From positions 1,232 to 65,231 of the forward strand of contig JAZKAN010000002.1 of assembly GCA_040389125.1 (NCBI GenBank): a stretch of DNA of 64,000 bases. The letters run 5' to 3'. Made by a program: the position numbers and the translations under genes. This DNA is from Patescibacteria group bacterium. GTDB lineage: Bacteria; Patescibacteriota; Minisyncoccia; Phycocordibacterales; DATDWN01. Below are positions 2,511 through 28,536 of the stretch, in pieces. The notes beneath the pieces are model-generated. The model saw only the letters and a program-made list of their open reading frames with translations, searched no databases and was not told where the DNA came from. The number at the start of each line of letters is the position of its first letter. The first letter of the stretch is position 1.

Positions 2511-2562
2511 ACTTGTATTTTCTTGAAAAGTATGGTTTTATATTGTAGGAGGCTGTAAAGAG

Positions 2563-2958
2563 ATGACGGCGGATACAATCATATTGATTTGTTGGATAGG
2601 CCTTGGCTTGTCCGTGCTTTGCTTGATTCGAGGGTGGCAACTCAGACTCCGTGCTCGACGTAGAGAGCTCGTGCAGAAAGTCACTCTGTACATGAAAGGT
2701 GGAGCATCGGCAAACACCTACCACAAAATCATTATTCGAGTGGTTGCAGGTCGTCAAGTGGTGGCTATCTGCTATGACAAAGGTCGCGAAATAGTCGTCG
2801 CTAAGGTGACTGTGGGGAATTGGACTGTTCAAACCGAGTCCATTCCCAATGAACTCAATCTCTATTCCGACATTAGCGAGGGGGAAGAAATCCTGGAATG
2901 GCTGAATCAAATTGCAGGATATTTGCGCACCTATAACATACCACTTGTGGCGGCGTGA
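2563..2958 (+). CDS. Hypothetical membrane-anchored protein (orphan cassette 1 inside the r-protein operon)
   Basis: 131-aa ORF with an AGGAGG Shine-Dalgarno site upstream. The N-terminus has a hydrophobic helix (IILICWIGLGLSVLCLI). It has its own terminator and is visibly GC-richer than its neighbours. Confidence 0.6.
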   Translation: MTADTIILICWIGLGLSVLCLIRGWQLRLRARRRELVQKVTLYMKGGASANTYHKIIIRVVAGRQVVAICYDKGREIVVAKVTVGNWTVQTESIPNELNLYSDISEGEEILEWLNQIAGYLRTYNIPLVAA

Positions 2959-2977
2959 AATGCCACCACCAAATCAA

Positions 2978-3009
2978 GCCGGCGTACCCACATGGGTCCG
3001 CCGGCTTTT
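2978..3009 (+). terminator. Intrinsic terminator of cassette 1
   Basis: GCCGGCG (2978-2984) pairs with CGCCGGC (2999-3005), followed by TTTT. The tail GCCGGCTTTTCACATGC recurs at 4237-4253. Confidence 0.7.
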
Positions 3010-3069
3010 CACATGCTCAAAACTTGTTTTAAATATGAGAGTATGTTTCCATTATATGAGGAGGGAGAT

Positions 3070-3477
3070 ATGCATAGGCTAACGCTCAGCATGGCCAGTT
3101 TCATCAGTGGGGAATTGGTAAAGGATCTTTGGAGGATGACGGACGGTAGCAATACCTGCTTTAGCTATCTCGACCGCGGGCATTTTGAGGCAGGGGTGGA
3201 GATATGTGAATTTTTTGTTGACATTGGGAGTATGAAAAAAAGACTTGAGTCTACTGGACCTCAATCTCACCCTTGCTCAAGGTTCAATTTTTCCCTGGAG
3301 CTGAGTGAGTCAGCACGAGCAAAGCCAAATGGAATGCTTGTGTTGGGCGTGTTGCAGAGTATGTCCAAACCCACTCAATGCCTTTTGTCTCGTTTGCTAA
3401 ACGGGAGAAATCTGCGTGAGCATCATCTGCAAGCGATAGAAGATTTCTTTTTTGAATTACATCGGCTCCTAGCATGA
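3070..3477 (+). CDS. Hypothetical protein (orphan cassette 2)
   Basis: In-frame ATG at 3070 preceded by GAGGAGGGAG. The track ORF start at 2992 would overlap the previous terminator hairpin. 135 aa with no recognisable motif. Confidence 0.5.
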   Translation: MHRLTLSMASFISGELVKDLWRMTDGSNTCFSYLDRGHFEAGVEICEFFVDIGSMKKRLESTGPQSHPCSRFNFSLELSESARAKPNGMLVLGVLQSMSKPTQCLLSRLLNGRNLREHHLQAIEDFFFELHRLLA

Positions 3478-3494
3478 CTTGTATCCGTTCACCA

Positions 3495-3527
3495 GCTGGC
3501 GTACCCTATCTCGGTCCGCCAGCTTTT
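3495..3527 (+). terminator. Intrinsic terminator of cassette 2
   Basis: GCTGGCG (3495-3501) pairs with CGCCAGC (3517-3523), followed by TTTT. It is homologous in layout and sequence to the terminators at 2978 and 4215. Confidence 0.65.
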
Positions 3528-3583
3528 CGTGTCTACACCATATAAATTTAAATTAAGCTCTCAACCCAGCCTTTTTCTACCCC

Positions 3584-3612
3584 TTGCATTTTATTCTTAT
3601 GTGTGATATAAT
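3584..3612 (+). promoter_or_regulatory. Sigma70-like promoter of cassette 3
   Basis: TTGCAT (3584-3589), 17-nt spacer, TATAAT (3607-3612). Confidence 0.5.
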
Positions 3613-3693
3613 ACAGGAGAAAGCTGAAGTGGGGCAGCTATAGACTCCATTCGCCGTCGGGCGTTAAATAGATCATTGATAAGGTGGTAGAAA

Positions 3694-4194
3694 ATGTTTG
3701 AAACGAATCAGACCCTCACAATTCAGTGGCCAGCACCCCTGGTCATTGTAGCGTCCCTCGCGTTTGCAATTCTGATAGTTGGTGGAGGTGCATGGTACCT
3801 TCATTGGCGAATCAAGGTAGTTATCGAGAAAGCTCTGAGCAAAGGAAAGGGTCTAAGTCATAAAGACGCTCAGCTCCAGACTACTCGCTACAATCTTGCT
3901 GGGCAGATTAAAAATACTCTGGCAACAACTGCAAAAGATCACCCAGTAAGTGATTTCATTCATGTGGAAAACTTATCGGATCGAGCAGAACTTTGCAGGT
4001 ATGTTGTGACAGCTTTCTATGTAAAAAGAAGCGTTGAATTGATTGTCCAAGTGACTGTGATGAAAGACTCGATTACTGCTCAAACTGCTTCTGGTCCGCA
4101 CAGTAGTCTGGGGTGCAGGGCTGATAGCGGAGACATGCTACTTTTTTTGGAAGGAATAAAAGATGAGGTCAGGGAGTTTAGGCCTAAATCCTAA
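3694..4194 (+). CDS. Hypothetical membrane-anchored protein (orphan cassette 3)
   Basis: 166-aa ORF with AAGGTGG 7 nt upstream. It has an N-terminal TM helix (LVIVASLAFAILIVGGGAWYL) and the same overall layout as cassette 1. Confidence 0.6.
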   Translation: MFETNQTLTIQWPAPLVIVASLAFAILIVGGGAWYLHWRIKVVIEKALSKGKGLSHKDAQLQTTRYNLAGQIKNTLATTAKDHPVSDFIHVENLSDRAELCRYVVTAFYVKRSVELIVQVTVMKDSITAQTASGPHSSLGCRADSGDMLLFLEGIKDEVREFRPKS

Positions 4195-4214
4195 ACACTT
4201 GAATCATCATACTA

Positions 4215-4246
4215 GCCGGTGCGTCCTTCGGGACGCGCCGGCTTTT
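4215..4246 (+). terminator. Intrinsic terminator of cassette 3
   Basis: GCCGGTGCGTCC, loop TTCG, GGACGCGCCGGC, followed by TTTT. Confidence 0.75.
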
Positions 4247-4273
4247 CACATGCAAAAAATTACGTACCCACTA

Positions 4274-4443: not shown

Positions 4444-4454
4444 GAACTCTTAGT

Positions 4455-4483
4455 TTGACTCCCACACGGTAATCTGATAGTAT
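4455..4483 (+). promoter_or_regulatory. Sigma70-like promoter that restarts the r-protein operon at rpsN
   Basis: TTGACT (4455-4460), 17-nt spacer, TAGTAT (4478-4483), about 30 nt upstream of rpsN. Confidence 0.5.
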
Positions 4484-4514
4484 GACCCCAGCTTGTAAAA
4501 GCTAATTTTATTTC

Positions 4515-4700
4515 ATGGCAAAAACATCAGTAAAAGCACGAGCAGCTAAAACCCCGAAATTCGGGACACGAGCGGTAAACCGTTGCTTTCGATGTAGTCG
4601 AAAACACGGATTCATGCGTGATTTCGGTCTCTGCAGAATCTGTTTTCGAGAGTTAGCAAACGAGGGAAAAATCCCTGGAATAAAAAAGTCCTCATGGTAG
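4515..4700 (+). CDS. rpsN: 30S ribosomal protein S14, short zinc-ribbon (type Z) form
   Basis: 61 aa with CFRCSRKHGFMRDFGLCRICFRE (CxxC...CxxC) and a C-terminal KSSW. Confidence 0.93.
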   Translation: MAKTSVKARAAKTPKFGTRAVNRCFRCSRKHGFMRDFGLCRICFRELANEGKIPGIKKSSW

Positions 4701-4777
4701 AGGCGCAAAACTAGTTGTCTCGGTAAGTCAGAGAATCTCTTCTCTCGATACTACCCAGATATAATACACAACACACA

Positions 4778-5167
4778 ATGCACGACCCAATTGGAGATAT
4801 GATTATCCGAATAAAGAACGCCTCAGACTCACGAAAAGAATCTGTGGTATTTCCGCATTCAAAACTCAAACTGGCTATTCTCGACACACTTCTAAAGGAA
4901 GGTTACGTAAAGTCATTTGGAAAGAAAGGTAAAAAGGTAGCAAAATTCATCGAGGTTGTTCTCGTATACGTAGACGGAGCACCACGAATCACTGGTGTCG
5001 AGCGTGTGTCAAAAACATCAAAGCGAATCTACACAAAGTCACAGGAGATTCGATCTGTAAAAAGTGGAATGGGATCGCTCATTCTCTCGACTCCACAGGG
5101 AATTATGACAGACAAGGCTGCTAAAAAGGCAAATGTTGGAGGCGAGGCTCTCTTTAAAATCTGGTAA
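4778..5167 (+). CDS. rpsH: 30S ribosomal protein S8
   Basis: 129 aa starting MHDPIGDMIIRIKNA and ending GGEALFKIW, a typical S8. Confidence 0.96.
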   Translation: MHDPIGDMIIRIKNASDSRKESVVFPHSKLKLAILDTLLKEGYVKSFGKKGKKVAKFIEVVLVYVDGAPRITGVERVSKTSKRIYTKSQEIRSVKSGMGSLILSTPQGIMTDKAAKKANVGGEALFKIW

Positions 5168-5177
5168 TACAAAACAT

Positions 5178-5711
5178 ATGTCACGAATCGGAAAAAAAAT
5201 AATAGCAATTCCAGAGAAAACAACAGTCACTACAGACGGTCTGAATTTTACTGTAGTTGGACCACTCGGAACACTCACAAAAAAGTTCAAGTCTGATATC
5301 GTGATCACGATAGGAGACAAAGAAATCACTCTCGAACCAAAACGCGTGACACTTGAAAACAAGGCACTGTGGGGAACATATGCATCCCACCTCATGAATA
5401 TGGTAAACGGCGTTACAACTCCATTTTCTAAAAAACTGATCATCGAGGGAATCGGATATAAATCTGAAGTCAAAGGCGACAACCTCGTCATGGCTCTCGG
5501 ATTTTCACACCCTGTTATTGTTCCGATTCCAAAGGGCTTGAAAGTAACTGCAGAGAAAAATATCATCACTGCAACAGGTATCGACAAAGAAGTCGTGGGA
5601 GAGTTTGTTGCAAACATACGATCACTCAAGAAACCAGAACCATACAAAGGTAAGGGTATTCGATACGAGGGAGAAGTGGTCAAGCGTAAACAAGGCAAGA
5701 AATCTGCATAA
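5178..5711 (+). CDS. rplF: 50S ribosomal protein L6
   Basis: The in-frame ATG at 5178 gives MSRIGKKIIAIPEKTTV, the canonical L6 N-terminus. The track start at 5133 overlaps rpsH. Confidence 0.95.
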   Translation: MSRIGKKIIAIPEKTTVTTDGLNFTVVGPLGTLTKKFKSDIVITIGDKEITLEPKRVTLENKALWGTYASHLMNMVNGVTTPFSKKLIIEGIGYKSEVKGDNLVMALGFSHPVIVPIPKGLKVTAEKNIITATGIDKEVVGEFVANIRSLKKPEPYKGKGIRYEGEVVKRKQGKKSA

Positions 5712-5730
5712 TCTCAATATATAAAATAGT

Positions 5731-6081
5731 ATGAAATCATTAAACATTAAAAACGAAAAGAGAGTACGACGACACGCGAGAATTCGCTACAGTGTTGTGG
5801 GTACTCCTACAAAGCCCCGCCTCTCTGTATTCAAGTCAAACAAACACATCGCTGTTCAGCTGATCGATGATGAAAACGCAGTCACACTCGCGTCAGTACA
5901 TTCTCGAGATGTTAAAGGTAAAACAATGATGGAAAAGTCGAGAGCAGTCGGAGAGGCAATCGCTACAAAAGCGGCTGCCAAGAAAATTGAGACGGTTGTT
6001 TTTGACCGAGGAGGATTCCGATACATTGGGTGTGTGGAGGCTCTCGCAGAAGGCGCACGCAAAGGCGGACTCAAATTTTAA
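5731..6081 (+). CDS. rplR: 50S ribosomal protein L18
   Basis: 116 aa with RRHARIR, PRLSVFKSNKHIAVQLIDD and FDRGGFRYIG. Confidence 0.95.
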   Translation: MKSLNIKNEKRVRRHARIRYSVVGTPTKPRLSVFKSNKHIAVQLIDDENAVTLASVHSRDVKGKTMMEKSRAVGEAIATKAAAKKIETVVFDRGGFRYIGCVEALAEGARKGGLKF

Positions 6082-6089
6082 AAAATATT

Positions 6090-6683
6090 ATGGATACAGA
6101 AATTAAAAAAACAGAAGGTGATGTGGTAAGTGCAGGAGCACCTGATTCTCGCGATAATGCGCAGGGTGGTAGTCAAGGTTCATCGCGTGAATTTCGAAAG
6201 AATACTCGCAAGGCACCTCCACGCCGTGAGGCTCGCGTCAAGCCTGAATTCGATCAGAAGATCGTCAGCATTCGCCGCGTGACTCGAGTGGTAACAGGAG
6301 GCCGACGATTCAGTTTCTCTGTTGGTATTGTGATTGGTGACCGCAAGGGTCGCGTCGGTGTGGGACAAGGCAAGGCAGGAGACACTCCGATCGCTATCGA
6401 CAAGGCTGTTCGTGATGCTCGCAAAAACATGATCACTGTCCCTATGACCAAAAATGGTTCGATTCCACACGAAGTTGACGCAAAGTTCTCGAGCTCTCGA
6501 GTACACATCATGCGTGCACCAGGCAAGGGTATTCTCGCTGGATCGTCTGTTCGAACAGTACTTGAATTCGCTGGCGTAAAAGAAGTCAGTGCAAAAATCT
6601 TTTCTCGAAGCAAGAACAAAGTAAACAATGCCAAAGCAGCAGTAAAGGCTCTCGCAACACTCAAGTTGCCAAAGAATAAATAA
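6090..6683 (+). CDS. rpsE: 30S ribosomal protein S5
   Basis: ATG at 6090. The protein contains RRVTRVVTGGRRFSFSVGIVIGDRKGRVGVGQGKA, the S5 dsRBD signature. Confidence 0.95.
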   Translation: MDTEIKKTEGDVVSAGAPDSRDNAQGGSQGSSREFRKNTRKAPPRREARVKPEFDQKIVSIRRVTRVVTGGRRFSFSVGIVIGDRKGRVGVGQGKAGDTPIAIDKAVRDARKNMITVPMTKNGSIPHEVDAKFSSSRVHIMRAPGKGILAGSSVRTVLEFAGVKEVSAKIFSRSKNKVNNAKAAVKALATLKLPKNK

Positions 6684-6690
6684 AAATACC

Positions 6691-7131
6691 ATGCAAACTC
6701 ATAATCTAAAGCGAACACACGCAAATAAAAAAGCACGACAAGTAGGTCGTGGGGGAACTCGTGGAAAAACAGCAGGACGTGGAACAAAAGGACAGAACGC
6801 GCGTGCGGGTCACAAGAAACGACCAGAAATCCGAGATTTCATCAAACGTCTTCCTAAACTTCGTGGACGAGGTAAAAATATCAACACAAGTATTCAAACA
6901 AAACCAGTTGTTGTGAATTTAAAGGACCTCAAAAAATGTAAAGATGGAGATACTGTATCTCCTCGAACACTCGTAAAACATGGTATAGTGAGTAAGGTCG
7001 CTGGTGACCTTCCTCGAATCAAAATCCTGGGCAGTGGTACAGTTGAGGTGAAACTGACTGTAAAAGACTGCGAAGTCTCAGCTAGTGCAAAGGAGGCAAT
7101 CGAGAAAGCTGGAGGGACGGTTGTTCTTTAA
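6691..7131 (+). CDS. rplO: 50S ribosomal protein L15
   Basis: 146 aa with KKARQVGRGGTRGKTAGRGTKGQNARAG. It starts 7 nt after the rpsE stop, so no rpmD lies between them. Confidence 0.95.
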   Translation: MQTHNLKRTHANKKARQVGRGGTRGKTAGRGTKGQNARAGHKKRPEIRDFIKRLPKLRGRGKNINTSIQTKPVVVNLKDLKKCKDGDTVSPRTLVKHGIVSKVAGDLPRIKILGSGTVEVKLTVKDCEVSASAKEAIEKAGGTVVL

Positions 7132-7250
7132 AATCTCATTCTCCTCATGGCTTTTTAAAACACGGAGTCGCTCGGGGCACTCGCGCTCCTCGCTCTCGGG
7201 CCGTCGCCCCGCGTACGGTTTTAAAAAGTCATGAGTCAACGAGATTTTAA
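7128..7250 (+). repeat. Nested-palindrome repeat, family B, copy 1 (overlaps the rplO stop codon)
   Basis: 7132-7246 matches 25592-25706 at 111 of 115 positions by hand alignment. Ends are AATCTC...GAGATT, the stem is CTCATGRCTTTTTAAAAC, and the core is GC-rich. Confidence 0.75.
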
Positions 7251-7300
7251 AGAATACTCGCCTCTGCGCCGGGGTGGTAAAAGAAAATTCAAAAAATACA

Positions 7301-8572
7301 ATGAAAGACTTTTTTAATAAATTTACACTCGTTTTCCAGGATGCAGTTTTACGAAAACGAATTCTGTTTACACTACTCGCCCTAGTGATTTTCCGCGTAC
7401 TTGCTGTTATTCCAATACCAGGCATTGACCATGCACGACTTACACAATTTTTCGCAAGTAGTGAGTTTTTCGGACTCCTCAACATTTTCTCTGGAGGGGG
7501 ACTCGCACAGGTGTCTATTGTGCTCCTCGGTGTAGGTCCATATATTACTGGTTCTATCATCATGCAGCTTCTCACAGTTATGTCACCGAGACTCAAGGAA
7601 ATGTACCAGGAGGATGGCGAGGCTGGCCGACGCAAGTTTGCTCAGTACGGACGACTCCTTACTATTCCACTTGCACTACTTCAAGCATTTAGTTTTATTA
7701 AAATTCTTCAGAACCAACAGGTACTTGGAGCACTGTCTCCGCTCCAGCTCTCGACTGATCTTATTGTGATTACCGCTGGATCGGTCCTGCTGATGTGGAT
7801 CGGTGAGCTCATTTCTGAGTACGGTATTGGTAACGGTGTGTCCCTCATTATTTTCTCTGGTATTGTGGCGGCTTTGCCTACAACCATTAGTCAACTCATC
7901 TTTACATTTGATGCAGCCCAGCTTCCACTGTACCTCGTATTTCTCGTTGTTGCAGCAATCGTCATCGTTGCGGTGGTAGTGGTAACAGAAGCAGAGCGAC
8001 CAATTCCGGTCACATATGCAAAACAGGTTCGAGGGTCACGCGTGTACGGTGGTTCGTCAACATACCTTCCACTTCGTATGAATCAGAGTGGTGTTATGCC
8101 AATCATTTTTGGTCTTGCGATTCTCTCATTCCCACAACTCATATTGCGTTTCTTTCAGAATTCATCAGTTGATATTGTCCGCAGCATCTCGACACACGTC
8201 CTCTCGGTTCTCGCAAACTCATGGTTCTACGCGATTCTCTATTTCTTCTTTGTATTCGTGTTTACATATTTCTACACAGCGGTGACATTTGATCCAGACC
8301 AGATTTCAACCAACCTTCAGAAAAACGGCGCATTCATCCCAGGTGTTCGCCCAGGCAAACCTACTGCAGAACACATCGGACGCGTAGTCACTCGCATCAC
8401 GCTCGTCGGAGCACTCTTCCTCGGTATCATTGCGATTCTTCCGCTCATTATGCGAGGCCTCACAGGCATCACGGCAGTGTCAGTCGGGGGAACAGCACTC
8501 CTCATCGTGGTATCTGTCGTAATAGACCTAGTAAAAAAAATCGACGCTCAGGTATCAATCAGAGAATATTAA
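7301..8572 (+). CDS. secY: Preprotein translocase subunit SecY
   Basis: About 423 aa and multi-pass, with LFTLLALVIFRVLAVIPIPGID and GGTALLIVVSVVIDL. It sits between rplO and adk. The start is either ATG 7301 or GTG 7274. Confidence 0.95.
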   Translation: MKDFFNKFTLVFQDAVLRKRILFTLLALVIFRVLAVIPIPGIDHARLTQFFASSEFFGLLNIFSGGGLAQVSIVLLGVGPYITGSIIMQLLTVMSPRLKEMYQEDGEAGRRKFAQYGRLLTIPLALLQAFSFIKILQNQQVLGALSPLQLSTDLIVITAGSVLLMWIGELISEYGIGNGVSLIIFSGIVAALPTTISQLIFTFDAAQLPLYLVFLVVAAIVIVAVVVVTEAERPIPVTYAKQVRGSRVYGGSSTYLPLRMNQSGVMPIIFGLAILSFPQLILRFFQNSSVDIVRSISTHVLSVLANSWFYAILYFFFVFVFTYFYTAVTFDPDQISTNLQKNGAFIPGVRPGKPTAEHIGRVVTRITLVGALFLGIIAILPLIMRGLTGITAVSVGGTALLIVVSVVIDLVKKIDAQVSIREY

Positions 8573-8645: not shown

Positions 8646-8674
8646 TTGACAAGAGATGTGAAAGGGTGTATAAT
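8646..8674 (+). promoter_or_regulatory. Consensus sigma70 promoter of the secY-adk orphan cassette
   Basis: TTGACA (8646-8651), 17-nt spacer, TATAAT (8669-8674). Confidence 0.6.
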
Positions 8675-9025
8675 ATAGGGTAGATGACCAACACACAGAG
8701 TTTTCTCATAGCTCGCTAAAAATGAGATTGGACATGTACTTCTCATAATGTCCTAGGGGCGGAAAGCACCCGAGAGAAAAGGTAATAACCGGCCTTGCTT
8801 AAAATGCGTTGCGTTTTGAGTAAAAGAGATTATGTGGAGACTAAGGGTTGCCACTGACGGATACTGGAACTTTCCTAAAGCTAGTATCAAATACCCTCCG
8901 TTTTTTTGGAGCCAACCAACGATTTGGTTGGCTCCAGTATTCAGAACCAGGAGTTGAATTGATTCTAATTCGATTTGTGGAATGATTCTGGAAATTCAAA
9001 AAGAAGTTCTTTGGAGAGAAAATCA

Positions 9026-9418
9026 ATGACAACCTGGCACCGACCAACGGGTCCGCAAGTAGAACTTGGGGATCACATTTCAAATCTGCTGGGAGTGTGG
9101 ATGGCACAGAACTTTCACACCAAAATGAGCATGACAATGAATCCGGACAAAGACGGAGCGTATGTCATCTCTGCTGGATGGAGGGAGCATAGCGGATACG
9201 ACAGCGTCGGCTGGTTAGATCCCAAACCTATCCTCACGATTCGAGTCAAACTCGACGAGAATCCGGCAATCAGGGTGACCTACGCACCGCCTTTCGAAAT
9301 CAACGAAGGGGTGCGGACATCATTCGGGATCGAAAATCACGAAGTCGCTGAGATGGTTATCGGGATTGGCAATACTCTTGCCCACTTTAATCCGCGAAAC
9401 CATCCTGAGATCCGCTAG
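9026..9418 (+). CDS. Hypothetical protein (orphan cassette between secY and adk)
   Basis: 130 aa from ATG 9026, preceded by GGAGAG. The region is GC-richer and has its own promoter and terminator. Confidence 0.5.
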   Translation: MTTWHRPTGPQVELGDHISNLLGVWMAQNFHTKMSMTMNPDKDGAYVISAGWREHSGYDSVGWLDPKPILTIRVKLDENPAIRVTYAPPFEINEGVRTSFGIENHEVAEMVIGIGNTLAHFNPRNHPEIR

Positions 9419-9468
9419 GTTGCTTTCAAAAATTGCCGGACTCACTCCAGCGCATTCAGTAGTACACA

Positions 9469-9516
9469 CCGCCCAACTCGGGACGAAAATTCGTCCAGAG
9501 GCTTGGGCGGATTTTT
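9469..9516 (+). terminator. Intrinsic terminator of the secY-adk cassette
   Basis: CCGCCCAA pairs with CTTGGGCGG, enclosing the inner hairpin GGACGAAAATTCGTCC. It is followed by ATTTTT. Confidence 0.65.
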
Positions 9517-9540
9517 GTTGTAGAAAAAATAACCACTAAA

Positions 9541-10329: not shown

Positions 10330-10337
10330 CTATTTAA

Positions 10338-11805: not shown

Positions 11806-11825
11806 AGAGAATCGTAAATTTTATA

Positions 11826-11867
11826 ATAAAAAACCGCGTGGTGCCCAGATAGGCGCATCACGCGGTT
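11826..11867 (-). terminator. Intrinsic terminator for the minus-strand GC-rich operon
   Basis: On the minus strand, AACCGCGTG pairs with CACGCGGTT and is followed by TTTTTATTATAA. Confidence 0.6.
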
Positions 11868-11887
11868 GGATGATCAGACGATCAAAT

Positions 11888-12040
11888 CTACTTCTCTTCA
11901 TCGGGGAAGTTCACATATGCGTGATATCTCCCTCCTGTTTGGGCGCAGTTCATGCACGGGCACATTGCCCGAGCCTTCGTCTCTGTGGTACCTTCGACGT
12001 TTTCTTCGACGGTATTGTCTTTTTTTTCGATCTCGTTCAT
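11888..12040 (-). CDS. Putative 50-aa cysteine-containing peptide (not in the ORF track, below 60 aa)
   Basis: Minus-strand ATG at 12040 preceded by GGAGAAAAAG. Translation is MNEIEKKDNTVEENVEGTTETKARAMCPCMNCAQTGGRYHAYVNFPDEEK. The terminator follows directly. Confidence 0.4.
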   Translation of the reverse strand: MNEIEKKDNTVEENVEGTTETKARAMCPCMNCAQTGGRYHAYVNFPDEEK

Positions 12041-12179
12041 CTTTTTCTCCAAGGAACTTCAACTCGATTTTGGATCGTACTAATCAAGTTGTCTTTAGAA
12101 ACAACAAAATTTACATTTGCATTCTCTAAAGATTGGGAGGGTGGGGCTTGCGAGCCTAACACCGCTCCCGAAAGGACAA

Positions 12180-12713
12180 TTACTTGCTGATTTGCGCCAC
12201 TAGGTGGCGGTATGCGACTGCCGCGACGGCCGAGTCATAGAGGGGGTTGTGAGTTCCGCCCTCGAACTTGCCGACGGACAACCCGTGCTTTTTCACGTAG
12301 CTGTCGACCGACGTCGGGTCTTCACCTGCTTGCTGCAGATTCCCCGATACGTCGAGCATCGGGTAAGGACCGTCCCAGTCGCCGATGACACCCTGGGCGT
12401 GCATGTCGCGGAGCAACCCTGCCTCCACGATGTACCCCATGTGCACGAGAATGTCCGCGTCGGCTTTGTTCGCGAGATAAAACTTCGCGAAGTCAGCAAG
12501 CAATCCCTTGTACGTGTCGTGCGTTACCGGCACACCAGCAAGGGTGGGGAGGACATTCTCCTTTACCCACTGTTCGGTCACTGCCGAGTCTGGCAAGCGA
12601 CCGATAAAGCGGGCGATCTCAGTGCCTTGCTCGTCGTAGACGAGCGCACCGATTGCGAAAGCCTTGCCCCAGAGACCGTTGGTCTCTGCGTCGAACGAAA
12701 ACATCTTTTTCAT
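12180..12713 (-). CDS. DEDDh-type 3'-5' exonuclease (DnaQ/RNase T-like fold)
   Basis: FSFDAETNGL is an Exo I (DxE) motif and GGTHNPLYDSAVAA is an Exo III (Hx4D) motif. ATG 12713 is preceded by GGAGACGGAGA. The gene is strongly GC-rich relative to the window. Confidence 0.8.
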   Translation of the reverse strand: MKKMFSFDAETNGLWGKAFAIGALVYDEQGTEIARFIGRLPDSAVTEQWVKENVLPTLAGVPVTHDTYKGLLADFAKFYLANKADADILVHMGYIVEAGLLRDMHAQGVIGDWDGPYPMLDVSGNLQQAGEDPTSVDSYVKKHGLSVGKFEGGTHNPLYDSAVAAVAYRHLVAQISK

Positions 12714-12990
12714 TTTTTCTCCGTCTCCTAGTCGGAATAATATCAACATTTATTTTGTAGATATTAACATTCTTCCGGCCATGAAACATTTGAAACTTTT
12801 TCGTCCTTTCGGACTCATCAGTCAGGCTTTTCCATTTCTGGACATCCTGAGAAAGTTGGAGCGTCACATACGTAATCGCCCCATGTGGAACGATAGTTGG
12901 ATCGTTCCACCATTTCACTTCTTCCGCCAACTCGGAATGTATAACATGACATTTCTTTATGAGTCGTAGTCATTGACGACTTCGCCGATG

Positions 12991-13662
12991 TTACTTGGGT
13001 TGCTGATCTGCGATGATCGCCTGCAACTCCTCGTCTGTCATTTGGCTCGGACTAGCCGAGACCCATTTGACAAACAAATCTTCCTCCTCTTTAATCACTA
13101 GTACTAACAAGTAATTTTTTTTCTTCCGATATATTCGCCTTTGTTCTTGCCACGGCTTGCCAATTGGTCGCGGCTCGTAGGGGTGATACGCTTGGTTTGC
13201 TTTCCACTTTCCCTCCAAAATGAGAGGGAGGGTTAGGTGCTCATTCAGAAGAGATTGCTTTTCCTCCGCCTGAACGACACCATTAAGCTCTCGGAGCTCA
13301 TCTAATTTTCGATGATAGTCTGAGTTTGCGTCCCCAAGTTGATTGAGCAGTTTTCTGCTCCTCAATGTCCATTCGGCAGATTCCAGGCTTGGATTTCTTT
13401 CATGGTTTTCCCGTTCTTCCATGATTTCATCCCTTTTTTCTTTGAGTCTATCAACCTCATTTTTGAGGGTTTTATATTTCCCCTCAAAAACAATTCCAAA
13501 CCATTCGGTTTGAAATTTTGGTCGCGGAACTGTATCTGACGGCTGAGTCGGGGCAAAGCTGTTTTCTTTAATCACGACCGGAGTGGCGGTCACCACCCCT
13601 TTTACCTCGTTGGTGGCATTGCTGCCACCAAAAAAATTCTTGAAAAAATTCCAAATTGTCAT
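12991..13662 (-). CDS. Hypothetical coiled-coil protein
   Basis: 223-aa ORF with a GAGGAG Shine-Dalgarno site 6 nt upstream. The central part has charged heptad-like stretches (NEVDRLKEKRDEIMEERENHERN). Confidence 0.6.
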   Translation of the reverse strand: MTIWNFFKNFFGGSNATNEVKGVVTATPVVIKENSFAPTQPSDTVPRPKFQTEWFGIVFEGKYKTLKNEVDRLKEKRDEIMEERENHERNPSLESAEWTLRSRKLLNQLGDANSDYHRKLDELRELNGVVQAEEKQSLLNEHLTLPLILEGKWKANQAYHPYEPRPIGKPWQEQRRIYRKKKNYLLVLVIKEEEDLFVKWVSASPSQMTDEELQAIIADQQPK

Positions 13663-14052
13663 ACTATCTCCTCATCCGTCCATTGGGCGGACACCTTTCT
13701 CGGCATGTGAATGTTACCCAGCCCTTTGGGCTGACCGAGCGGGATTGTTTTGCAACCCCTCTTTCCAGCACTAACTAATAATGAATTATTGCTGGAGAAG
13801 AGGAATAACAATAGAGTCGTCACAGAGTGACTGTTATTCTCTGTTATCCTAACTTCTCTATACTCAAATAATCTTGCTCGCAAGCTCTTTTATATGAGGT
13901 TTGTCAAAGTACGTACCTTGTATGTATATGATAGCATATTTAATAAATAATGTCAAGTAAAATCAGATAATATGGCTTAAAATATGATTTATAGTCAAAT
14001 TCTATGCCTTCTTTTTAGTGGTATGGGAAGTGCACGTGAATAGCATATAGGG

Positions 14053-19236: not shown

Positions 19237-19664
19237 GTAATTGTGGACATAAGGGCTAATATATCGAAACGGCTAACTGACTACCTTTCTCGGTTTTGGC
19301 ATTACTACCAATCAAGCCCAACTTTGCAAAAAGCCCTTGAAAACAATAGCTATACAGTGATTGCATAGTCACAAGTTGGCATTAAAAAATAGCATTCGAC
19401 CGAAGGGAGAATGCTGACTCTCGACCTCAGGAGAGAGTCCAACCCTGAGCCCTGGGTGGGGTGCGGGGAGGGCGCGTAAAAAATCGCGCGCAATCCCGCA
19501 CCATCGGTTGGGTTTTGTGTATGTAGAAGAGATTAACCTCAATCAAGTATATGAGGAAATCAGGTTTTGACCTTTTCACACCGCACCATTGACACATTTT
19601 CATAAAAGTGCTAACATACTTTTTAGTAGTACATTCCAATTCCTCTTATGAAGGAGCTTTACAA

Positions 19665-20477
19665 ATGAAGAAGAAACAGGTTCTCACACGTCTGGACACC
19701 CACATCAAACGTGGAAACATCCAAGTTAAGGGCGAGATTGCTTTCGCTCAATTTTTTCACTGGTGGCTCGGAAAGCTCACCATTCCTGCTGATGAGAAGT
19801 ACGACTTCTATCAGATCGAACATTTCCTTCCCCAGCTTGCTGTGGATGCATGGGAAGCGATGCGGACTGGTACAGACGAAGTTGCTCTTCTCTATCGCCA
19901 AAGATACGAACAGAGCACTAGTCGGTTGCCTGTAAACCTGATGGAACTCGGCGAGAACATTCTCCAGCAAGCTTCAGGCATCACCGTTATCCGTTACGTC
20001 TTGTCAGCAGTTGTTGGCGAGCGATGGATTGAAGACAAGGTGGACGCCTATTGCCATGCTCAGAGCACCGCGCTCCAAGGCATGTTCGATAAGTTTCTCC
20101 GCCTCGTCTACGGCAGAGGTCTGTTCGAAGTCATCCAAGCTTCCAAATCCAGCGGGATGAACGGGAGATTTGGTTCTACCGATCTTCGAACCTGGGTCTC
20201 TGCGGGGCGCACGATGTTCACCTTTGCTCGACCCAAGAAGAAAGGGGACGAGGTGAGTGTCTCGTTCGTTGCAGGCGATGATGATGCACTGGCTCTTGAA
20301 GCTGGCATCCAGTCTGTCGAGGCAAATCTACCAACGGCGTTCAGCATGATTGAAGATGTCATCGCAAGATGGCCGAACACGCGAGAGAAGCAGGAAGCGA
20401 TCTTCAGGGATAGCACCGTCGCTCCTCTTGCAGTTCATGCAATGAGGGCTCGGGCGAAAGCTGAAGGGAAGAAGTAG
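19665..20477 (+). CDS. Hypothetical protein (GC-richer orphan cassette)
   Basis: 270 aa from ATG 19665, preceded by GAAGGAG. A possible promoter is TTGACA, 17-nt spacer, TAACAT at about 19589-19617. It has its own terminator. Confidence 0.6.
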   Translation: MKKKQVLTRLDTHIKRGNIQVKGEIAFAQFFHWWLGKLTIPADEKYDFYQIEHFLPQLAVDAWEAMRTGTDEVALLYRQRYEQSTSRLPVNLMELGENILQQASGITVIRYVLSAVVGERWIEDKVDAYCHAQSTALQGMFDKFLRLVYGRGLFEVIQASKSSGMNGRFGSTDLRTWVSAGRTMFTFARPKKKGDEVSVSFVAGDDDALALEAGIQSVEANLPTAFSMIEDVIARWPNTREKQEAIFRDSTVAPLAVHAMRARAKAEGKK

Positions 20478-20496
20478 GAAGGAATAACGTAAGTAC

Positions 20497-20533
20497 GGGG
20501 TCGTGTGGTATAAAAACCACGCGACCCTATTTC
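20497..20533 (+). terminator. Intrinsic terminator of the 19665 cassette
   Basis: GGGGTCGTGTGG pairs with CCACGCGACCC, followed by TATTTC. Confidence 0.6.
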
Positions 20534-24309: not shown

Positions 24310-24320
24310 AAAAACGGAGT

Positions 24321-25091: not shown

Positions 25092-25192
25092 TGAGAAACT
25101 CAAATATAGCAAAAAGGAAGGCTATCGAAACGATAATCTTCCTTGTGCTGTAAGGCTATTTGAGGAATTTGTTACCTCAAATACTCTAGATG

Positions 25193-25578: not shown

Positions 25579-25586
25579 GATGTTAA

Positions 25587-25710
25587 TATACAATCTCTTT
25601 CTCCTCATGACTTTTTAAAACACGGAGTCGCTCGGGGCACTCGCGCTCCTCGCTCTCGGGCCGTCGCCCTGTGTACGGTTTTAAAAAGTCATGAGTCAAC
25701 GAGATTGTAT
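25587..25710 (+). repeat. Nested-palindrome repeat, family B, copy 2
   Basis: 25592-25706 matches 7132-7246 at 111 of 115 positions. It lies between the ssrA 5' end and the smpB stop. Confidence 0.75.
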
Positions 25711-25738
25711 CTCTAACATCGGGTCAGGTATTGTTTTG

Positions 25739-26182
25739 TCAACGATCTTTTAAATCACGCTCGATATCGCGTCCAGACTCACGTTTCTTTATGGTCTCGC
25801 GTTTGTCGAACTTCTTCTTGCCTTTTACAGACGCAATATCGAGCTTTACCTTACTGCCTTTATTATACACCGAAAGTGGCACTATTGTCAACCCCTTTGT
25901 ACCCTCGATTTTACTCAGGTCATGAATCTCGGTTTTTTTGAGCAGGAGCCTGCGGTTGCGGTATGGGTCGTACTCCGTAGGAGTGTTGCCGACTTGGTAT
26001 GGTGGTATGAACATACCCACCACAAATGCCTCGTTCCCGCGGATAGTGACGTGTGCTCCCTCGAGCGAGCCCTGACTCTGTTTGAGTGCCTTCACTTCAA
26101 AGCCAAAAAGCTCTATGCCCGCAGAGTATTTATCGAGTATTTCATGGTTGAAACTGGCTTTGTGGTTCGTAATGAGAGACAT
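25739..26182 (-). CDS. smpB: SsrA-binding protein SmpB
   Basis: 147 aa with YSAGIELFGFEVKALK, PYRNRRLLLKKTEI and IVPLSVYNKGSKVKLDIA. Confidence 0.95.
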   Translation of the reverse strand: MSLITNHKASFNHEILDKYSAGIELFGFEVKALKQSQGSLEGAHVTIRGNEAFVVGMFIPPYQVGNTPTEYDPYRNRRLLLKKTEIHDLSKIEGTKGLTIVPLSVYNKGSKVKLDIASVKGKKKFDKRETIKKRESGRDIERDLKDR

Positions 26183-26250
26183 GGGGCTATAATATCATAT
26201 TGAAATATAATTGGTGCAAAAAACTATCTTTTGTGTATAATTGCCGTACT

Positions 26251-28188
26251 ATGAATACCCCCGAAAAACCAAACAAGCCAACAAAAATAATTATTAAAAA
26301 AAGTGAGAATGGAGAAAAAGGTCCAGATGAAGGATCGATCGTCAAATACGTGGTTTCTATTCTTATCGTATTTGTTTTGCTGTCGACTCTCTACTCGGTT
26401 ATTACAACAAAATCAAAAAAGATTGAGCAGATTCCACTTTCGCAAGTTGCAACCGATGTTGCGTCGAGTACGGTCGCATCTATTACAGTGAGTGGAGATG
26501 ACCTCTCGCTCGTATATGTAAACGGTGATACCAAAACTTCTAAAAAGGAACCAGGAGAGGCTCTCACGCAGACGCTTGTAAACTATGGCGTGACAAAAGC
26601 TGAACTGCAACCAATTAAAATAAATGTTAAGGATGAGGGCGGATTTGTGTACTGGCTTGTTAATTTCTCGCCTACTATTATTTCTATTTTATTTATTCTT
26701 GTATTTATTTGGTTCATCACTCGTCAGGTCAGGGGGGCGGGAATGCAGGCGCTGACATTTGGACAGTCCAAGGCACGCATGATTGATCCCAATGACAAGG
26801 AACAACGCGTAACATTTAAAGATGTTGCAGGTGCAAAAGAAGCCAAGGAAGAACTTGCAGAAATTGTGGATTTCCTACGATTCCCAAAAAAGTTTCTTGA
26901 TATCGGTGCGCGCATTCCAAAAGGAATTCTGCTCATGGGTGCACCGGGAACAGGTAAAACACTTCTCGCGCGAGCGGTTGCAGGAGAAGCCGGCGTAGCA
27001 TTTTTCTCTATTTCCGGTTCAGAGTTCGTAGAAATGTTTGTGGGTGTTGGTGCGTCTCGCGTGCGTGATCTCTTTATGCTTGCCAAAAAAACTGCACCAG
27101 CAATTATTTTTGTAGATGAAATTGATGCAGTCGGACGAGTGCGAGGTGTAGGAGCGGGTGGGGGAAACGATGAACGAGAGCAGACACTCAACCAAATTTT
27201 GGTAGAAATGGATGGATTTGAGCCAAATGAAAAAGTGATCGTGATGGCCGCGACAAACCGACCGGATGTTTTGGACCCCGCACTCCTTCGACCGGGACGT
27301 TTTGACCGCCGTGTGACTTTGGATTTGCCAGATCGTGGTGATCGCGAGGAAATTTTGAAAGTCCACAGTACCAAAAAGCCATTTGCAGAGGATGTGAACT
27401 TGTCAGTTATTGCAGAGCGAACTCCAGGGTTCTCTGGTGCGGATTTGTTCTCTCTCATGAATGAGGGCGCAATTTTGGCTGCACGAGAAAACCGTACAAA
27501 AATTTCTCAGTACGACCTCATACGATCAATTGAAAAAGTGATGCTCGGACCAGAACGCAAAAGTCACATTTTGTCGAAGAAAGAAAAGGAAATCACGGCG
27601 TATCACGAGGCTGGACATGCGGTTCTCGCTTCACTTCTGCCGTATGCAGATCCAGTACATAAAATTTCTATTATTTCTCGTGGACGAGCAGCGGGCTATG
27701 TGCTCAAACTTCCGCTCGAGGACCGCAAACTGCAATCCAAAAAGGAGTTTCTCGATGATATTGCAATGTCTCTCGGTGGATATGTGACAGAGAAAATGTT
27801 GTTTGATGATCTGACTACGGGTCCATCAAACGATCTCCAGGTATCAACTGCTCTCGCACGTGACATGGTCACGAAATACGGTATGTCAGATATGCTTGGT
27901 CCTGTTGCACTCGAGGGACAGGGCGGCAAGGTTTTGTTTGGACGTGGAGTCGAGGAGAAGGAATTTTCAGAAAAGGTGGCAACTGACATTGATGCAGAGG
28001 TGTCGCGAATTATGAAAGAAGCACATGACAAGGCAGAAAAGGTGATTACACAGAACAGAAAACTTCTCGATGCAATTGCTGCACGGCTGATCGAAGCAGA
28101 AACTATCGAGCGAACAGAGTTTGAAAGTATTTTGGTTGCACATGGTATCGTGCCAAAAAAGAAATTAGATATTGAACATCAGGTGTAG
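26251..28188 (+). CDS. ftsH: ATP-dependent zinc metalloprotease FtsH
   Basis: Walker A GAPGTGKT, Walker [13 protein letters not shown] region, and HEAGHA zinc site. ATG 26251 lies behind a TATAAT. Confidence 0.96.
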
Positions 28189-28243
28189 GGAGGTTGCAGA
28201 TTTGTACAGGATGTTGTAGTGTTTTAAGTAGAGGAGATTTAGC

Positions 28244-28474
28244 ATGAACGCACAAAATCGCAACCTTCATCCTACTGGGCAGATGGTTGGAGGCCAAATG
28301 CTTTATTGCCAAGGGGTATCGGTCAACGTCGACAGGCAAGGGTTGGTAGAAAGCCTGGTCTGCGGTCGTTGCGGTCAACGTCGACTACAAGCTACTGTCG
28401 GCAACGGGATTCCTCAGATCGAACTCTGGAAAACCCACTTAGCGAAGATTCCGTACTCGCTTGTTGCTCGTTAA
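28244..28474 (+). CDS. Hypothetical small protein (GC-richer orphan cassette)
   Basis: 76-aa ORF with GAGGAG 8 nt upstream. It contains CGRCG and is followed by a strong terminator. Confidence 0.45.
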   Translation: MNAQNRNLHPTGQMVGGQMLYCQGVSVNVDRQGLVESLVCGRCGQRRLQATVGNGIPQIELWKTHLAKIPYSLVAR

Positions 28475-28493
28475 TACGGCGCGAACTCCAATC

Positions 28494-28525
28494 AAAAAAG
28501 CCGAGGGACACACCCTCGGCTTTTT
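28494..28525. terminator. Bidirectional intrinsic terminator
   Basis: AAAAAA, GCCGAGGG, loop ACACA, CCCTCGGC, TTTTT. It lies between convergent genes. Confidence 0.8.
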
Positions 28526-28536
28526 CCTATATTATT

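Follow-up and report, generated by a model that had tools for sequence, protein, structure and literature searches.

INTRODUCTION

In Bacteroidia, the anti-Shine-Dalgarno (anti-SD) sequence is sequestered by bS21, bS18, and bS6, and an SD is retained on rpsU (PMC7797042, PMC13000453). For Parcubacteria, Tsurumaki et al. (2022; PMC9297842) reported anti-SD loss, the motif being undetected in about half of the 16S rRNA genes. The accessible text of that study deals with features of rRNA and ribosomal proteins; the sequence context of mRNA starts, a leaderless geometry, and accessory genes with SDs are not among its subjects, and it does not place Zambryskibacteria inside or outside the anti-SD-lacking group. 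Among the classes defined with GeneMarkS-2, class B comprises non-SD ribosome-binding sites (RBSs) and class C bacterial leaderless transcription together with SD on internal genes. The accessible part of that paper reads "atypical" genes as horizontally transferred and draws no link from them to a different RBS type (PMC6028130).

Here, we analyzed a 64,000-nucleotide (nt) stretch of contig JAZKAN010000002.1 (the window). The source organism, a tiny uncultured bacterium, belongs to the Paceibacteria (Parcubacteria, CPR) and resembles Candidatus Zambryskibacteria, from which its nearest SecY comes (78% identity). As in Bacteroidia, its core genes are SD-less and preceded by A-rich, G-poor sequence, and a strong SD is found on a small minority of genes. 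In Bacteroidia, however, the SD sits on a native, conserved ribosomal protein gene and serves autoregulation, whereas here the SDs belong to strain-specific, GC-richer insertions, and many first genes also look leaderless. Furthermore, the Bacteroidia anti-SD is present but hidden, whereas many Parcubacteria are reported to lack it. The reported anti-SD loss concerns the same broad lineage and, as far as the accessible text goes, predicts SD-less core genes such as those found here and in 80 relatives (PMC9297842). With the classes as described in the accessible part of the GeneMarkS-2 paper, the window shares the Pribnow box near the ATG of first genes (class C) and the non-SD context of other genes (class B), but unlike in class C its internal genes have no SD; the "atypical" genes resemble our insertions (PMC6028130).

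RESULTS

Native genes lack SDs, and many appear leaderless

The native genes referred to below are the following.

227..2454, plus strand: rplP-rpmC-rpsQ-rplN-rplX-rplE; A-rich, G-poor upstream sequences, no SD
4455..8572, plus strand: rpsN, then rpsH-rplF-rplR-rpsE-rplO-secY
4455-4483, plus strand: rpsN promoter TTGACT-17-TAGTAT; leader without SD
29965..32146, minus strand: recG, example of a leaderless-type start (ATG at 32133; TATAAT box ending 6 nt upstream)

As a separate observation, the uL30 gene is missing from the rpsE-rplO interval.

SD strength was calculated as the duplex energy of positions -20 to -3 with 5'-ACCUCCUUA-3'. Neither the window nor the 2.1 Mb of retrieved loci contained an rRNA gene, and scans of viral contigs for rRNA returned only unrelated rRNAs. 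The 69 native starts ranged from +3.5 to -4.6 kcal/mol (mean +0.35). None of them reached -6.4 kcal/mol, a value attained or exceeded in strength by 6.9% of 5000 random positions. Their upstream regions contained 8% G, compared with 34% for the cassettes described below. The preliminary description, which had noted SD-less housekeeping starts with A/T-rich upstream regions, was thus correct on this point. The SD was also absent from the native genes with predicted leaders (rpsN, ndk, rplX, and pilM).

In 11 native genes, including recG, a -10 hexamer ends exactly 6 nt upstream of the ATG, producing a sharp spacer peak. A -10 end located 4 to 10 nt from the ATG was detected in 21 of 69 native genes, at 4% of random positions, and in none of the nine cassettes. 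Leaderless transcription would be expected to place the end of the -10 element about 6 to 8 nt before the ATG, with no room for a leader, and we infer from the geometry seen that the first genes of native operons give rise to leaderless mRNAs.

Nine GC-richer cassettes carry canonical SDs

The cassettes are organized as follows.

2547..3012, plus strand: cassette 1, adjoining the 3' side of the rplE terminator (2477-2510)
2547-2552, plus strand: cassette 1 SD, AGGAGG
2563-2958, plus strand: cassette 1 CDS, 131 aa, N-terminal TM helix, singleton 90%-identity cluster
about 2976-3012, plus strand: cassette 1 terminator hairpin and TTTT
3058..3532, plus strand: cassette 2
3058-3067, plus strand: cassette 2 SD, GAGGAGGGAG
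3070-3477, plus strand: cassette 2 CDS, 135 aa (public calls: ATG 2992)
about 3494-3532, plus strand: cassette 2 terminator hairpin
3584..4248, plus strand: cassette 3
3584-3612, plus strand: cassette 3 promoter, TTGCAT-17-TG-TATAAT; leader of ~74 nt
3681-3687, plus strand: cassette 3 SD, AAGGTGG
3694-4194, plus strand: cassette 3 CDS, 166 aa
4214-4248, plus strand: cassette 3 terminator
8646..9520, plus strand: cassette 4, in the secY-adk interval
8646-8674, plus strand: cassette 4 promoter, perfect TTGACA-17-TATAAT; structured leader of ~344 nt
9013-9018, plus strand: cassette 4 SD, GGAGAG
9026-9418, plus strand: cassette 4 CDS, 130 aa
about 9469-9520, plus strand: cassette 4 terminator
11823..13956, minus strand: three-gene island, with ndk on one side and the next conserved gene on the other
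13956-13928, minus strand: island promoter, TTGACA-17-TG-TATCAT
13662-12991, minus strand: island CDS, 223 aa, near-orphan; SD GAGGAG at 13673-13668
12713-12180, minus strand: island CDS, DEDDh 3'-5' exonuclease, GC3 0.74; SD at 12729-12718
12040-11888, minus strand: island CDS, 50-aa ORF; SD GGAGA at 12050-12046
about 11867-11823, minus strand: island terminator
19589..20530, plus strand: cassette 8
19589-19617, plus strand: cassette 8 promoter, TTGACA-17-TG-TAACAT; leader of ~40 nt including TTCCTCTTATGAAGGAG
19651-19656, plus strand: cassette 8 SD, AAGGAG
19665-20477, plus strand: cassette 8 CDS, 270 aa
20497-20530, plus strand: cassette 8 terminator
28231..28530, plus strand: cassette 9, beginning 55 nt past ftsH
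28231-28236, plus strand: cassette 9 SD, GAGGAG
28244-28474, plus strand: cassette 9 CDS, 76 aa, CxxC pair
28495-28530, plus strand: cassette 9 terminator, strong

All nine cassette starts (2563, 3070, 3694, 9026, 19665, and 28244 on the plus strand; 12040, 12713, and 13662 on the minus strand) scored between -6.4 and -12.8 kcal/mol (mean -8.7), and every native start was weaker. Their motifs are AGGAGG, GAGGAGGGAG, AAGGTGG, GGAGAG, GAGGAG (two starts), GGAGA (two starts), and AAGGAG, located 5 to 11 nt before the ATG. A canonical SD, defined as a purine-rich motif about 4 to 12 nt upstream, is therefore present at 9/9 cassette and 0/69 native starts, and the split between native genes and GC-richer cassettes that had been claimed at the outset is real and strong. 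Start 3070 is our own choice within an ORF for which public calls place the start at 2992, and five of the nine starts were set downstream of the longest ORF start; seven agree with independent gene calls or homolog lengths. When any candidate start within the first 45 codons was admitted, an SD was found in 9/9 cassettes versus 7/69 native genes (Fisher p=6e-8).

Each cassette had also been said to possess its own promoter and terminator. Near-consensus -35/-10 pairs followed by long leaders were detected at four of the nine (3694, 9026, 13662, and 19665). Searches upstream of 2563, 3070, 12040, and 28244 detected no promoter, and 12713 has only a weak, distant match. Hairpins followed by a T-run lie downstream of seven of the nine ORFs. 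The claim thus holds for a part of the cassettes, not for all. The three minus-strand island genes may form one operon.

Integron cassettes were rejected as an explanation, since the units occupy five separate loci instead of a single array. Their hairpins carry terminator-like T-runs, a 17-mer (GCCGGCTTTTCACATGC) is common only to the terminators of cassettes 1 and 3, and an integrase was not seen in the ORF translations of the region. The flanks of the small cassettes revealed no integrase, transposase, or repeat-bounded element. A tmRNA-targeted island at 19.2-25.2 kb was likewise discarded: neither a duplication of the tmRNA 3' end nor an integrase domain was found there, and the sole repeat, a 15-nt exact match (19177-19191 and 25271-25285), is internal to tmRNA.

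Composition and codon use separate cassettes from core genes

The higher GC content of the cassettes, previously estimated by eye, was borne out by calculation (GC 0.495 versus 0.412 in native genes; GC3 0.541 versus 0.361, p=1.7e-5). The synonymous-codon score also differed (-0.067 versus +0.082, p=6e-6), and no native gene fell below the cassette median. The cassettes thus deviate from the host core in both composition and codon use. However, GC3 alone is not diagnostic, because native adk, map, ndk, and smpB reach 0.48-0.55 and have no SD. Accessory status by itself does not predict an SD either, since AT-rich orphan genes in the same window (16132-16554, 18587-19165, and 20612-25091) lack it.

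The cassettes are absent from the secY-region loci of relatives

In 80 relatives, an SD was present at 2.5% of 1080 orthologous core starts, at every GC content, showing that SD absence on core genes is clade-wide. Homologs of the cassette genes were not found in the ribosomal protein loci of these relatives (~10 kb around secY). The gap between rplE and rpsN exceeds 400 bp in 28 of 56 relatives and contains unrelated ORFs, many with a strong SD; insertions have hit this junction repeatedly, which makes it a hot spot. Across the relatives, 17.9% of strain-specific ORFs carried an SD versus 2.4% of conserved ORFs (odds ratio 8.8, p=2e-12), and the SD-bearing strain-specific ORFs were GC3-richer.

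Two cassette families are mobile and retain their composition

The preliminary description regarded all cassettes as orphans. This does not hold for the exonuclease, with 827 homologs, or for the 270-aa protein of cassette 8, with 21, and both families are found at sites other than those in the window. Four copies of the 270-aa gene, located in four different contexts, have promoter, leader, and SD in common. Their GC3 is 0.56-0.60, and their neighbors are AT-rich and leaderless. All four share, without a single change, a 17-nt stretch of the leader that includes the SD, although their proteins match the one encoded in the window at only 59-79% identity.

In other Patescibacteria, the chromosomal sites of the exonuclease homologs are unrelated, and one lies inside the gap between rplE and rpsN (L123). 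Family GC3 is about 0.7-0.86 regardless of host GC. Among 80 metagenome copies, GC exceeded that of the flanks by a mean of 0.123, and 65% had an SD 4 to 8 nt from the ATG, although the remaining upstream sequences are unrelated. As GC3 approaches host GC, SD frequency declines from 88% to 62%, 45%, and 20% (Spearman -0.35, p=0.009), a moderate trend with n=54 that rests on automated start calls. Fifteen IMG/VR contigs encode relatives of the exonuclease, and several of these contigs look like phage and are rich in SDs. Relatives also occur in larger SD-rich islands, which contain an IS66 transposase, a helicase, and a SAVED-domain protein. A PHROGs search gave no significant match for any cassette protein, and the cassette 3 protein had no homolog among 5.8 billion proteins.

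DISCUSSION

We consider it probable that the nine cassettes were acquired horizontally, as largely self-contained expression units, from a mobile gene pool that is richer in GC and uses SDs. Native translation initiation would proceed without SD pairing: operon first genes, whose -10 box ends ~6 nt from the ATG, would yield leaderless mRNAs, and operon-internal genes and the few leadered native ones are preceded by sequence rich in A and depleted in G, with a pyrimidine at -1. In the typical acquired unit, a promoter would be followed by a 40-340-nt leader bearing a canonical SD and then by the ORF and its terminator, and the pool would repeatedly enter intergenic hot spots of Paceibacteria (between rplE and rpsN, between secY and adk, and downstream of ndk). 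The proposal of an SD-using, higher-GC donor (host, phage, or another bacterium) is supported by the GC3 and codon contrast, by the lack of homologs in the ribosomal protein neighborhoods of relatives, and by the two mobile families that keep GC and SD, one of which also occurs on SD-rich phage-like contigs. From the latter we infer a phage-like source, and the pool may be at least partly phage-borne. A donor cannot be named, since six of the nine proteins either yielded no relatives or lay outside the wider searches. The initiation signals of phages usually match those of the host, so an SD-using pool of Paceibacteria phages would itself need explaining.

Single genes that stand out in composition, lie between conserved genes, and in some cases bring their own promoter and terminator are reminiscent of phage "morons," reportedly described by Hendrix and colleagues. 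Morons are defined inside prophage genomes, whereas our units are embedded in core loci of a bacterium, among them a ribosomal protein operon, and no prophage surrounds them. The fading of donor-type features with residence time resembles the amelioration of transferred genes, said to have been described by Lawrence and Ochman in 1997. In contrast to morons and ameliorated genes, the donor signature here extends to the translation-initiation signal.

Could the dichotomy instead arise within the host? One possibility, which we regard as rather unlikely but worth keeping in mind, is that the host has a usable anti-SD, starts its core genes in leaderless or A-rich contexts, and deliberately maintains a mobile or accessory class with SDs whose translation would differ, being perhaps conditional or preferential (compare the SD on rpsU in Bacteroidia). 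The leader TTCCTCTTATGAAGGAG, unchanged in four diverged 270-aa copies that all reside in AT-rich chromosomes of the leaderless type, fits such a regime, as do the canonical exonuclease SDs with their unrelated surroundings and the recurrence of SD-bearing strain-specific ORFs in many relatives. According to the accessible text of PMC9297842, moreover, the anti-SD motif is still present in about half of Parcubacteria 16S rRNA genes. The invariant and persistent SDs of the two families indicate purifying selection on the SD, which could act inside Paceibacteria; however, it could also have acted in an outside reservoir. A host-maintained regime also fits poorly with the loss of exonuclease SDs upon amelioration toward host composition, the absence of SDs from AT-rich accessory genes of this window, and the leadered native genes that do not use an SD.

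It is far less probable that the cassettes are native genes which have SDs merely because their long-leadered mRNAs need them, the GC difference being incidental. Consensus promoters do lie 40-344 nt upstream of four cassettes, and many native promoters are placed for leaderless transcription, but leadered or operon-internal native genes (rpsN, ndk, rplX, pilM, and all ribosomal protein genes) are SD-less. Together with the relatives' loci, which lack cassette homologs, and the distinct codon use, this observation largely refutes a native origin; the occurrence of two families at differing loci in different genomes also contradicts it. Even more improbable is an artefact, in the form of a chimeric metagenome-assembled contig, spurious ORFs, or start picking guided by the SD itself. 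The five starts set downstream, the six proteins with no detectable relatives or not widely searched, and the possible derivation of both assemblies from one read set would be compatible with it. Nevertheless, the Logan assembly of SRR26324622 reproduces L24-L5-cassettes 1-3 and adk-map-ndk-50aa-exo-223aa, seven starts are backed by public gene calls or homolog lengths, the dichotomy survives the admission of any candidate start, and dozens of unrelated assemblies show the same pattern.

If the cassettes come from an SD-using mobile pool, their SD is an imported signal of the source pool that stands outside the native initiation system of the host. SD use in this host would then be weak or dispensable.

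Shine-Dalgarno sites separate nine GC-richer genes from the native genes

The first 28 kb of the window and the remainder contain the following native genes:

First 28 kb: ribosomal genes rplP-rpmC-rpsQ-rplN-rplX-rplE, then rpsN-rpsH-rplF-rplR-rpsE-rplO-secY
First 28 kb: adk-map-ndk, infC-rpmI-rplT, smpB, tmRNA and ftsH
Remainder of the window: recG, type IV pilus cluster, ligA and gatCA

Nine further genes, here called cassettes, start at these positions:

2563, 3070 and 3694: cassettes 1-3, in the rplE-rpsN gap
9026: cassette 4, between secY and adk
13662, 12713 and 12040 (minus strand): three-gene island past ndk
19665: cassette 8, encoding a 270-aa protein
28244: cassette 9

The order rpsE-rplO lacks an intervening uL30 gene, and uL30 absence is given as a hallmark of the CPR (PMC9297842). 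The nearest SecY matches were from Candidatus Zambryskibacteria and other Paceibacteria MAGs (78-71% identity). An exact-sequence look-up found the cassette proteins also on Logan contigs of run SRR26324622.

Genes were called with a self-trained codon model, and starts were then corrected by eye. Shine-Dalgarno (SD) sites were scored as the duplex energy between positions -20 to -3 and the canonical anti-SD sequence ACCUCCUUA. All nine cassette starts scored between -6.4 and -12.8 kcal/mol, with motifs ending 5-11 nt upstream of the ATG, whereas the other 69 starts ranged from +3.5 to -4.6; -6.4 was reached by 6.9% of 5000 random window positions. When any candidate start within the first 45 codons was permitted, an SD was found for 9/9 cassettes and 7/69 native genes (p = 6e-8), showing that the split is not a product of picking starts by their SD. 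Seven of the nine cassette starts agree with public gene calls or homolog lengths, start 3070 being an exception. Cassettes and native genes also differed in GC (0.495 vs 0.412), GC3 (0.541 vs 0.361; p = 1.7e-5) and synonymous codon usage (p = 6e-6), and no native gene scored under the cassette median. The preliminary description had proposed both an SD on every one of these nine starts and on no native start, and a distinct cassette composition, and the data bear out both. It had named an equal SD frequency on core genes, or shared GC3 and codon usage, as counterevidence; neither was found.

Initiation contexts of the native genes

In 11 native genes, a -10-like hexamer ends exactly 6 nt upstream of the ATG. 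Such a hexamer lies 4-10 nt upstream in 21/69 native genes, a spacing shared by 4% of random positions but by no cassette. Leaderless mRNAs of first genes in native transcripts would be expected to show this geometry, and it matches "group C" of GeneMarkS-2 (PMC6028130). The remaining native starts are A-rich at -11 to -5, contain 0-9% G at -13 to -3 and, in 83% of cases, carry a pyrimidine at -1. In relatives, 1080 orthologous starts showed this upstream profile too. A leader is predicted for rpsN, ndk, rplX and pilM, and these native genes also lack an SD, so possession of a leader cannot account for the cassette SDs. That leadered mRNAs simply need an SD is thus ruled out by both the leadered and the operon-internal native genes. 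In the window, rpsN has gained its own promoter (4455-4483).

SD scarcity extends across the clade. In the ribosomal-protein loci of 80 relatives (GC 0.30 to 0.63), only 2.5% of the 1080 core starts reached -6.4 or lower, which is below the random-position rate of the window. This fits the published loss of the anti-SD in Parcubacteria: according to PMC9297842, only 48% of Parcubacteria 16S genes have a detectable CCTCCT motif, and the losses overlap the subgroup without uL1. A full-text literature search for work that connects the SD usage of mRNAs with Patescibacteria or Parcubacteria returned nothing. No rRNA was found in the window with Rfam, and 16S/23S motifs were absent from 185 loci totalling 2.1 Mb. 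Scans of viral contigs for universal 16S motifs detected only GC-rich reduced 16S, eukaryotic 18S and unrelated DNA.

One Yonathbacteria relative has a gene (locus L087, 452-1345, minus strand) with matches to PCRF/RF-1 release-factor domains. The gene has a short N terminus and begins directly at a promoter of the leaderless type. From inspection by eye, we take it to be prfB, which in many bacteria uses an SD-stimulated +1 frameshift site. If so, its short N terminus leaves no room for this site, which would be consistent with a lineage not dependent on anti-SD pairing.

Promoters, terminators and leaders of the cassettes

Each cassette had been described as having its own promoter and intrinsic terminator, and this held in part. 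Near-consensus -35/-10 pairs are present 40-344 nt upstream of 3694, 9026, 13662 and 19665; none was found upstream of 2563, 3070, 12040 and 28244, and 12713 has a weak, distant match only. A hairpin followed by a T-run lies downstream of 7/9 cassette ORFs. The minus-strand genes 13662, 12713 and 12040 may form one operon with a single terminator.

The leader of cassette 4 (8681-9025, 344 nt) begins at a perfect TTGACA-17-TATAAT promoter and has an unusual degree of structure (-110 kcal/mol, z = -5.35). Its role may be regulatory, or it may constitute a small RNA of its own. Even at permissive thresholds, Rfam detected no riboswitch or other known RNA in it or in the hairpin at 4274-4443. The similar hairpins past cassettes 1-3 prompted us to consider integron cassettes; we rejected this because the loci are scattered, the hairpins are followed by T-runs, no integrase is present and only a single 17-mer is shared.

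Cassette insertions and the rplE-rpsN hot spot

Homologs of all nine cassette proteins were sought in the loci of the 80 relatives (up to 10 kb on each side of secY), and none was found. The rplE-rpsN gap spans 2060 bp in the window (2455-4514) vs approximately 70-1200 bp in the closest relatives, and the gap from ndk to the next gene 2525 bp vs 300-530 bp. The rplE-rpsN gap exceeds 400 bp in 28/56 relatives (from among loci L002-L081) and reaches 6 kb, each time with unrelated ORFs, many of them behind AGGAGG-type SDs. This junction within a conserved ribosomal-protein operon is a recurrent insertion hot spot. Among the ORFs of the relatives, 17.9% of those without a homolog in other loci carry an SD vs 2.4% of the conserved ones (odds ratio 8.8, p = 2e-12), and the SD-bearing unshared ORFs have a GC3 above that of their own genome. 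The window is thus a single instance of a general pattern.

AT-rich accessory genes of the window (16132-16554, 18587-19165 and the block 20612-25091) lack SDs. The block comprises seven orphan ORFs (GC 0.32-0.37, GC3 0.21-0.38), with a weak HTH in the last ORF as the sole domain match, and borders the tmRNA gene (25190-25578, minus strand) at its 3' end. Unlike the cassettes, which are GC-rich and bear SDs, the block may represent a mobile element adapted to the host. A search there revealed neither an att duplication nor an integrase. A tmRNA-integrated island at 19.2-25.2 kb was considered and rejected, since the only repeat is a 15-nt exact match (19177-19191 and 25271-25285) that is internal to the tmRNA.

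Two cassette families can be traced in other genomes

No sequence match in Pfam or PDB was obtained for the 177-aa product of 12713-12180. Its structure is confidently modelled (pLDDT 90.6) as that of a putative DEDDh 3'-5' exonuclease, with TM-scores of 0.6-0.7 to RNase T, Pol III epsilon and TREX1. Of its 827 homologs, the best 120 share 71-88% identity, and the few named sources among these 120 are MAGs of Patescibacteria (Taylorbacteria, Yonathbacteria) or an unclassified bacterium. The gene occupies different sites in different genomes: after dnaE, near hrcA, near rpmG or beside infC-rpmI-rplT. In one locus (L123) a family member lies inside the rplE-rpsN gap; the copy of the window lies past ndk. 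In 80 metagenome copies, GC exceeds that of the flanks by a mean of 0.123, and GC3 is typically 0.7-0.86 vs a flank GC of 0.33-0.5. Of these copies, 65% have an SD at a distance of 4-8 nt from the ATG, while their upstream sequences are otherwise unrelated. SD frequency drops as GC3 nears host GC (88%, 62%, 45%, 20%; Spearman -0.35, p = 0.009). Distant relatives (43-67% identity) occur on 15 IMG/VR contigs, several of which are typical phage-like arrays of small SD-led ORFs, and some chromosomal copies lie within larger SD-rich, GC-rich islands with a DEAD/HA2 helicase, a SAVED-domain protein or an IS66 transposase. The family could alternatively be the vertically inherited native DnaQ of the lineage, and one genome does have it next to dnaE. 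We judge this unlikely: the location varies between genomes, GC3 stays at approximately 0.7 or higher in hosts of 0.33-0.45 GC, and copies reside on phage-like contigs.

The 270-aa protein has 21 homologs, and all observed copies sit in Paceibacteria-type chromosomes. Four copies in four different contexts have in common an ATTGACA-17-TAnnAT promoter, a GC3 of 0.56-0.60 and a leader of approximately 45 nt with the invariant segment TTCCTCTTATGAAGGAG; their neighbours are AT-rich genes with leaderless-type promoters. Homology spans from the -35 box to the stop codon, and the terminators differ. The leader segment (window 19635-19664; also in L187, L188 and L192) includes an upstream ATG. In 3/4 copies a mini-ORF of 6 codons begins at this ATG, and its TGA overlaps the main ATG (ATGA), by coincidence or perhaps as a coupling device.

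Only three distant relatives of the 223-aa protein (13662) were found among 1.84 billion representatives, and no homolog of the 166-aa protein (3694) among 5.8 billion proteins. PHROGs and PADLOC returned nothing significant for any cassette protein, and Pfam, PHROGs and PADLOC assigned no function to the orphan proteins.

Repeats and other features of the window

A family of structured elements of approximately 170-190 nt comprises:

4274-4443, plus strand: perfect 30-bp outer stem (-105 kcal/mol, z = -11.8); bordering the cassette 1-3 insertion on the right
41795-41951, and 43800-43984 on the minus strand: flanking the comF-pilM segment, in inverted orientation

They have a common core …CCGCAGGCCTGAAGCATGGTTCTGTCAACGAC…GCTCATTGACAGATTCAGGTCGAGGA…, and their inner and outer stems vary in sequence with pairing kept. 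None matched Rfam, and among 187 loci the core motif is confined to this organism. Two more intergenic repeat families have terminal inverted repeats and a MITE-like look: a 121-nt repeat (95% identity) at 7129-7249, between rplO and secY, and at 25589-25709, beside the tmRNA 5' end; and the pair 44519-44734 and 58380-58598, with a common 63-nt core (89% complementary).

A group I intron (61505-61735, minus strand; Rfam, 64 bits) has no recognisable host gene around it, with no rRNA match and no tRNA called there. The other strand bears an adjacent 224-aa ORF (61848-62522) that combines a LAGLIDADG-like motif with an HTH at its N terminus. Cassette 9 and a small membrane-protein gene are closely followed by a tRNA-Ile (28870-28943) whose anticodon, TAT, is generally uncommon in bacteria.

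Discussion

The data support the view that the cassettes are horizontally acquired islets that brought a foreign initiation signal into a CPR lineage whose own genes lack SDs. The foreign, GC-richer, SD-using source suggested from the window is supported, and it widens into a pattern across the clade, in which two mobile gene families can be traced. On the host side, published anti-SD loss in Parcubacteria is joined by a class-C-like leaderless geometry and class-B-like non-SD contexts. The cassettes resemble phage morons and the ordinary amelioration of transferred genes, with the difference that the donor signature includes a translation-initiation signal for which the recipient lineage appears to have no use. 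The closest parallel to a genome that lacks SDs except on a few genes comes from rpsU of the Bacteroidia (PMC7797042, PMC13000453); that gene is conserved and native, whereas the cassettes are imports.

Whether the SD is a relic or a working signal is a question on which the evidence points both ways. The fall in SD frequency as exonuclease GC3 approaches host GC, the lack of SDs on the AT-rich accessory genes of the window and the published anti-SD absence in many Parcubacteria count for a relic. The invariant SD leader of the 270-aa family, together with SD persistence amid diverged upstream sequence, indicates purifying selection on the SDs of these families and counts for function, as does the confinement of the observed 270-aa copies to Paceibacteria-type chromosomes. 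Such selection could have acted in a reservoir, a phage or another mobile element, that repeatedly delivers copies; the persistently high GC3 in copies 12-40% apart in protein argues for this source-sink dynamic. A tentative and rather doubtful reading is that Paceibacteria keep a working anti-SD, with SD-led initiation reserved for a circulating mobile pool of GC-rich genes and all core genes being leaderless or A-rich.

In Paceibacteria, whose genomes consist mostly of "hypothetical proteins", an SD may distinguish recent imports from native genes, adding to GC3. Since native starts are leaderless or non-SD and cassettes are SD-led, gene finders that fit a single RBS model to each genome are expected to place starts wrongly in these MAGs. 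The rplE-rpsN hot spot and the exonuclease family, with its GC3 of approximately 0.7-0.86 whatever the host GC, could serve as tracers of gene flow in uncultured CPR bacteria. The cassettes also permit a direct test of whether anti-SD-lacking Parcubacteria ribosomes can translate SD-led mRNAs and, if so, whether this offers mobile elements a route. If the reading of a reserved mobile pool were true, the SD would be a "mobile-gene channel" in this CPR clade, with the conserved 270-aa leader and the persistent exonuclease SD as its visible footprint. Phage and mobile-element mRNAs could then gain privileged or conditional access to ribosomes, with host mRNAs not competing for the anti-SD.
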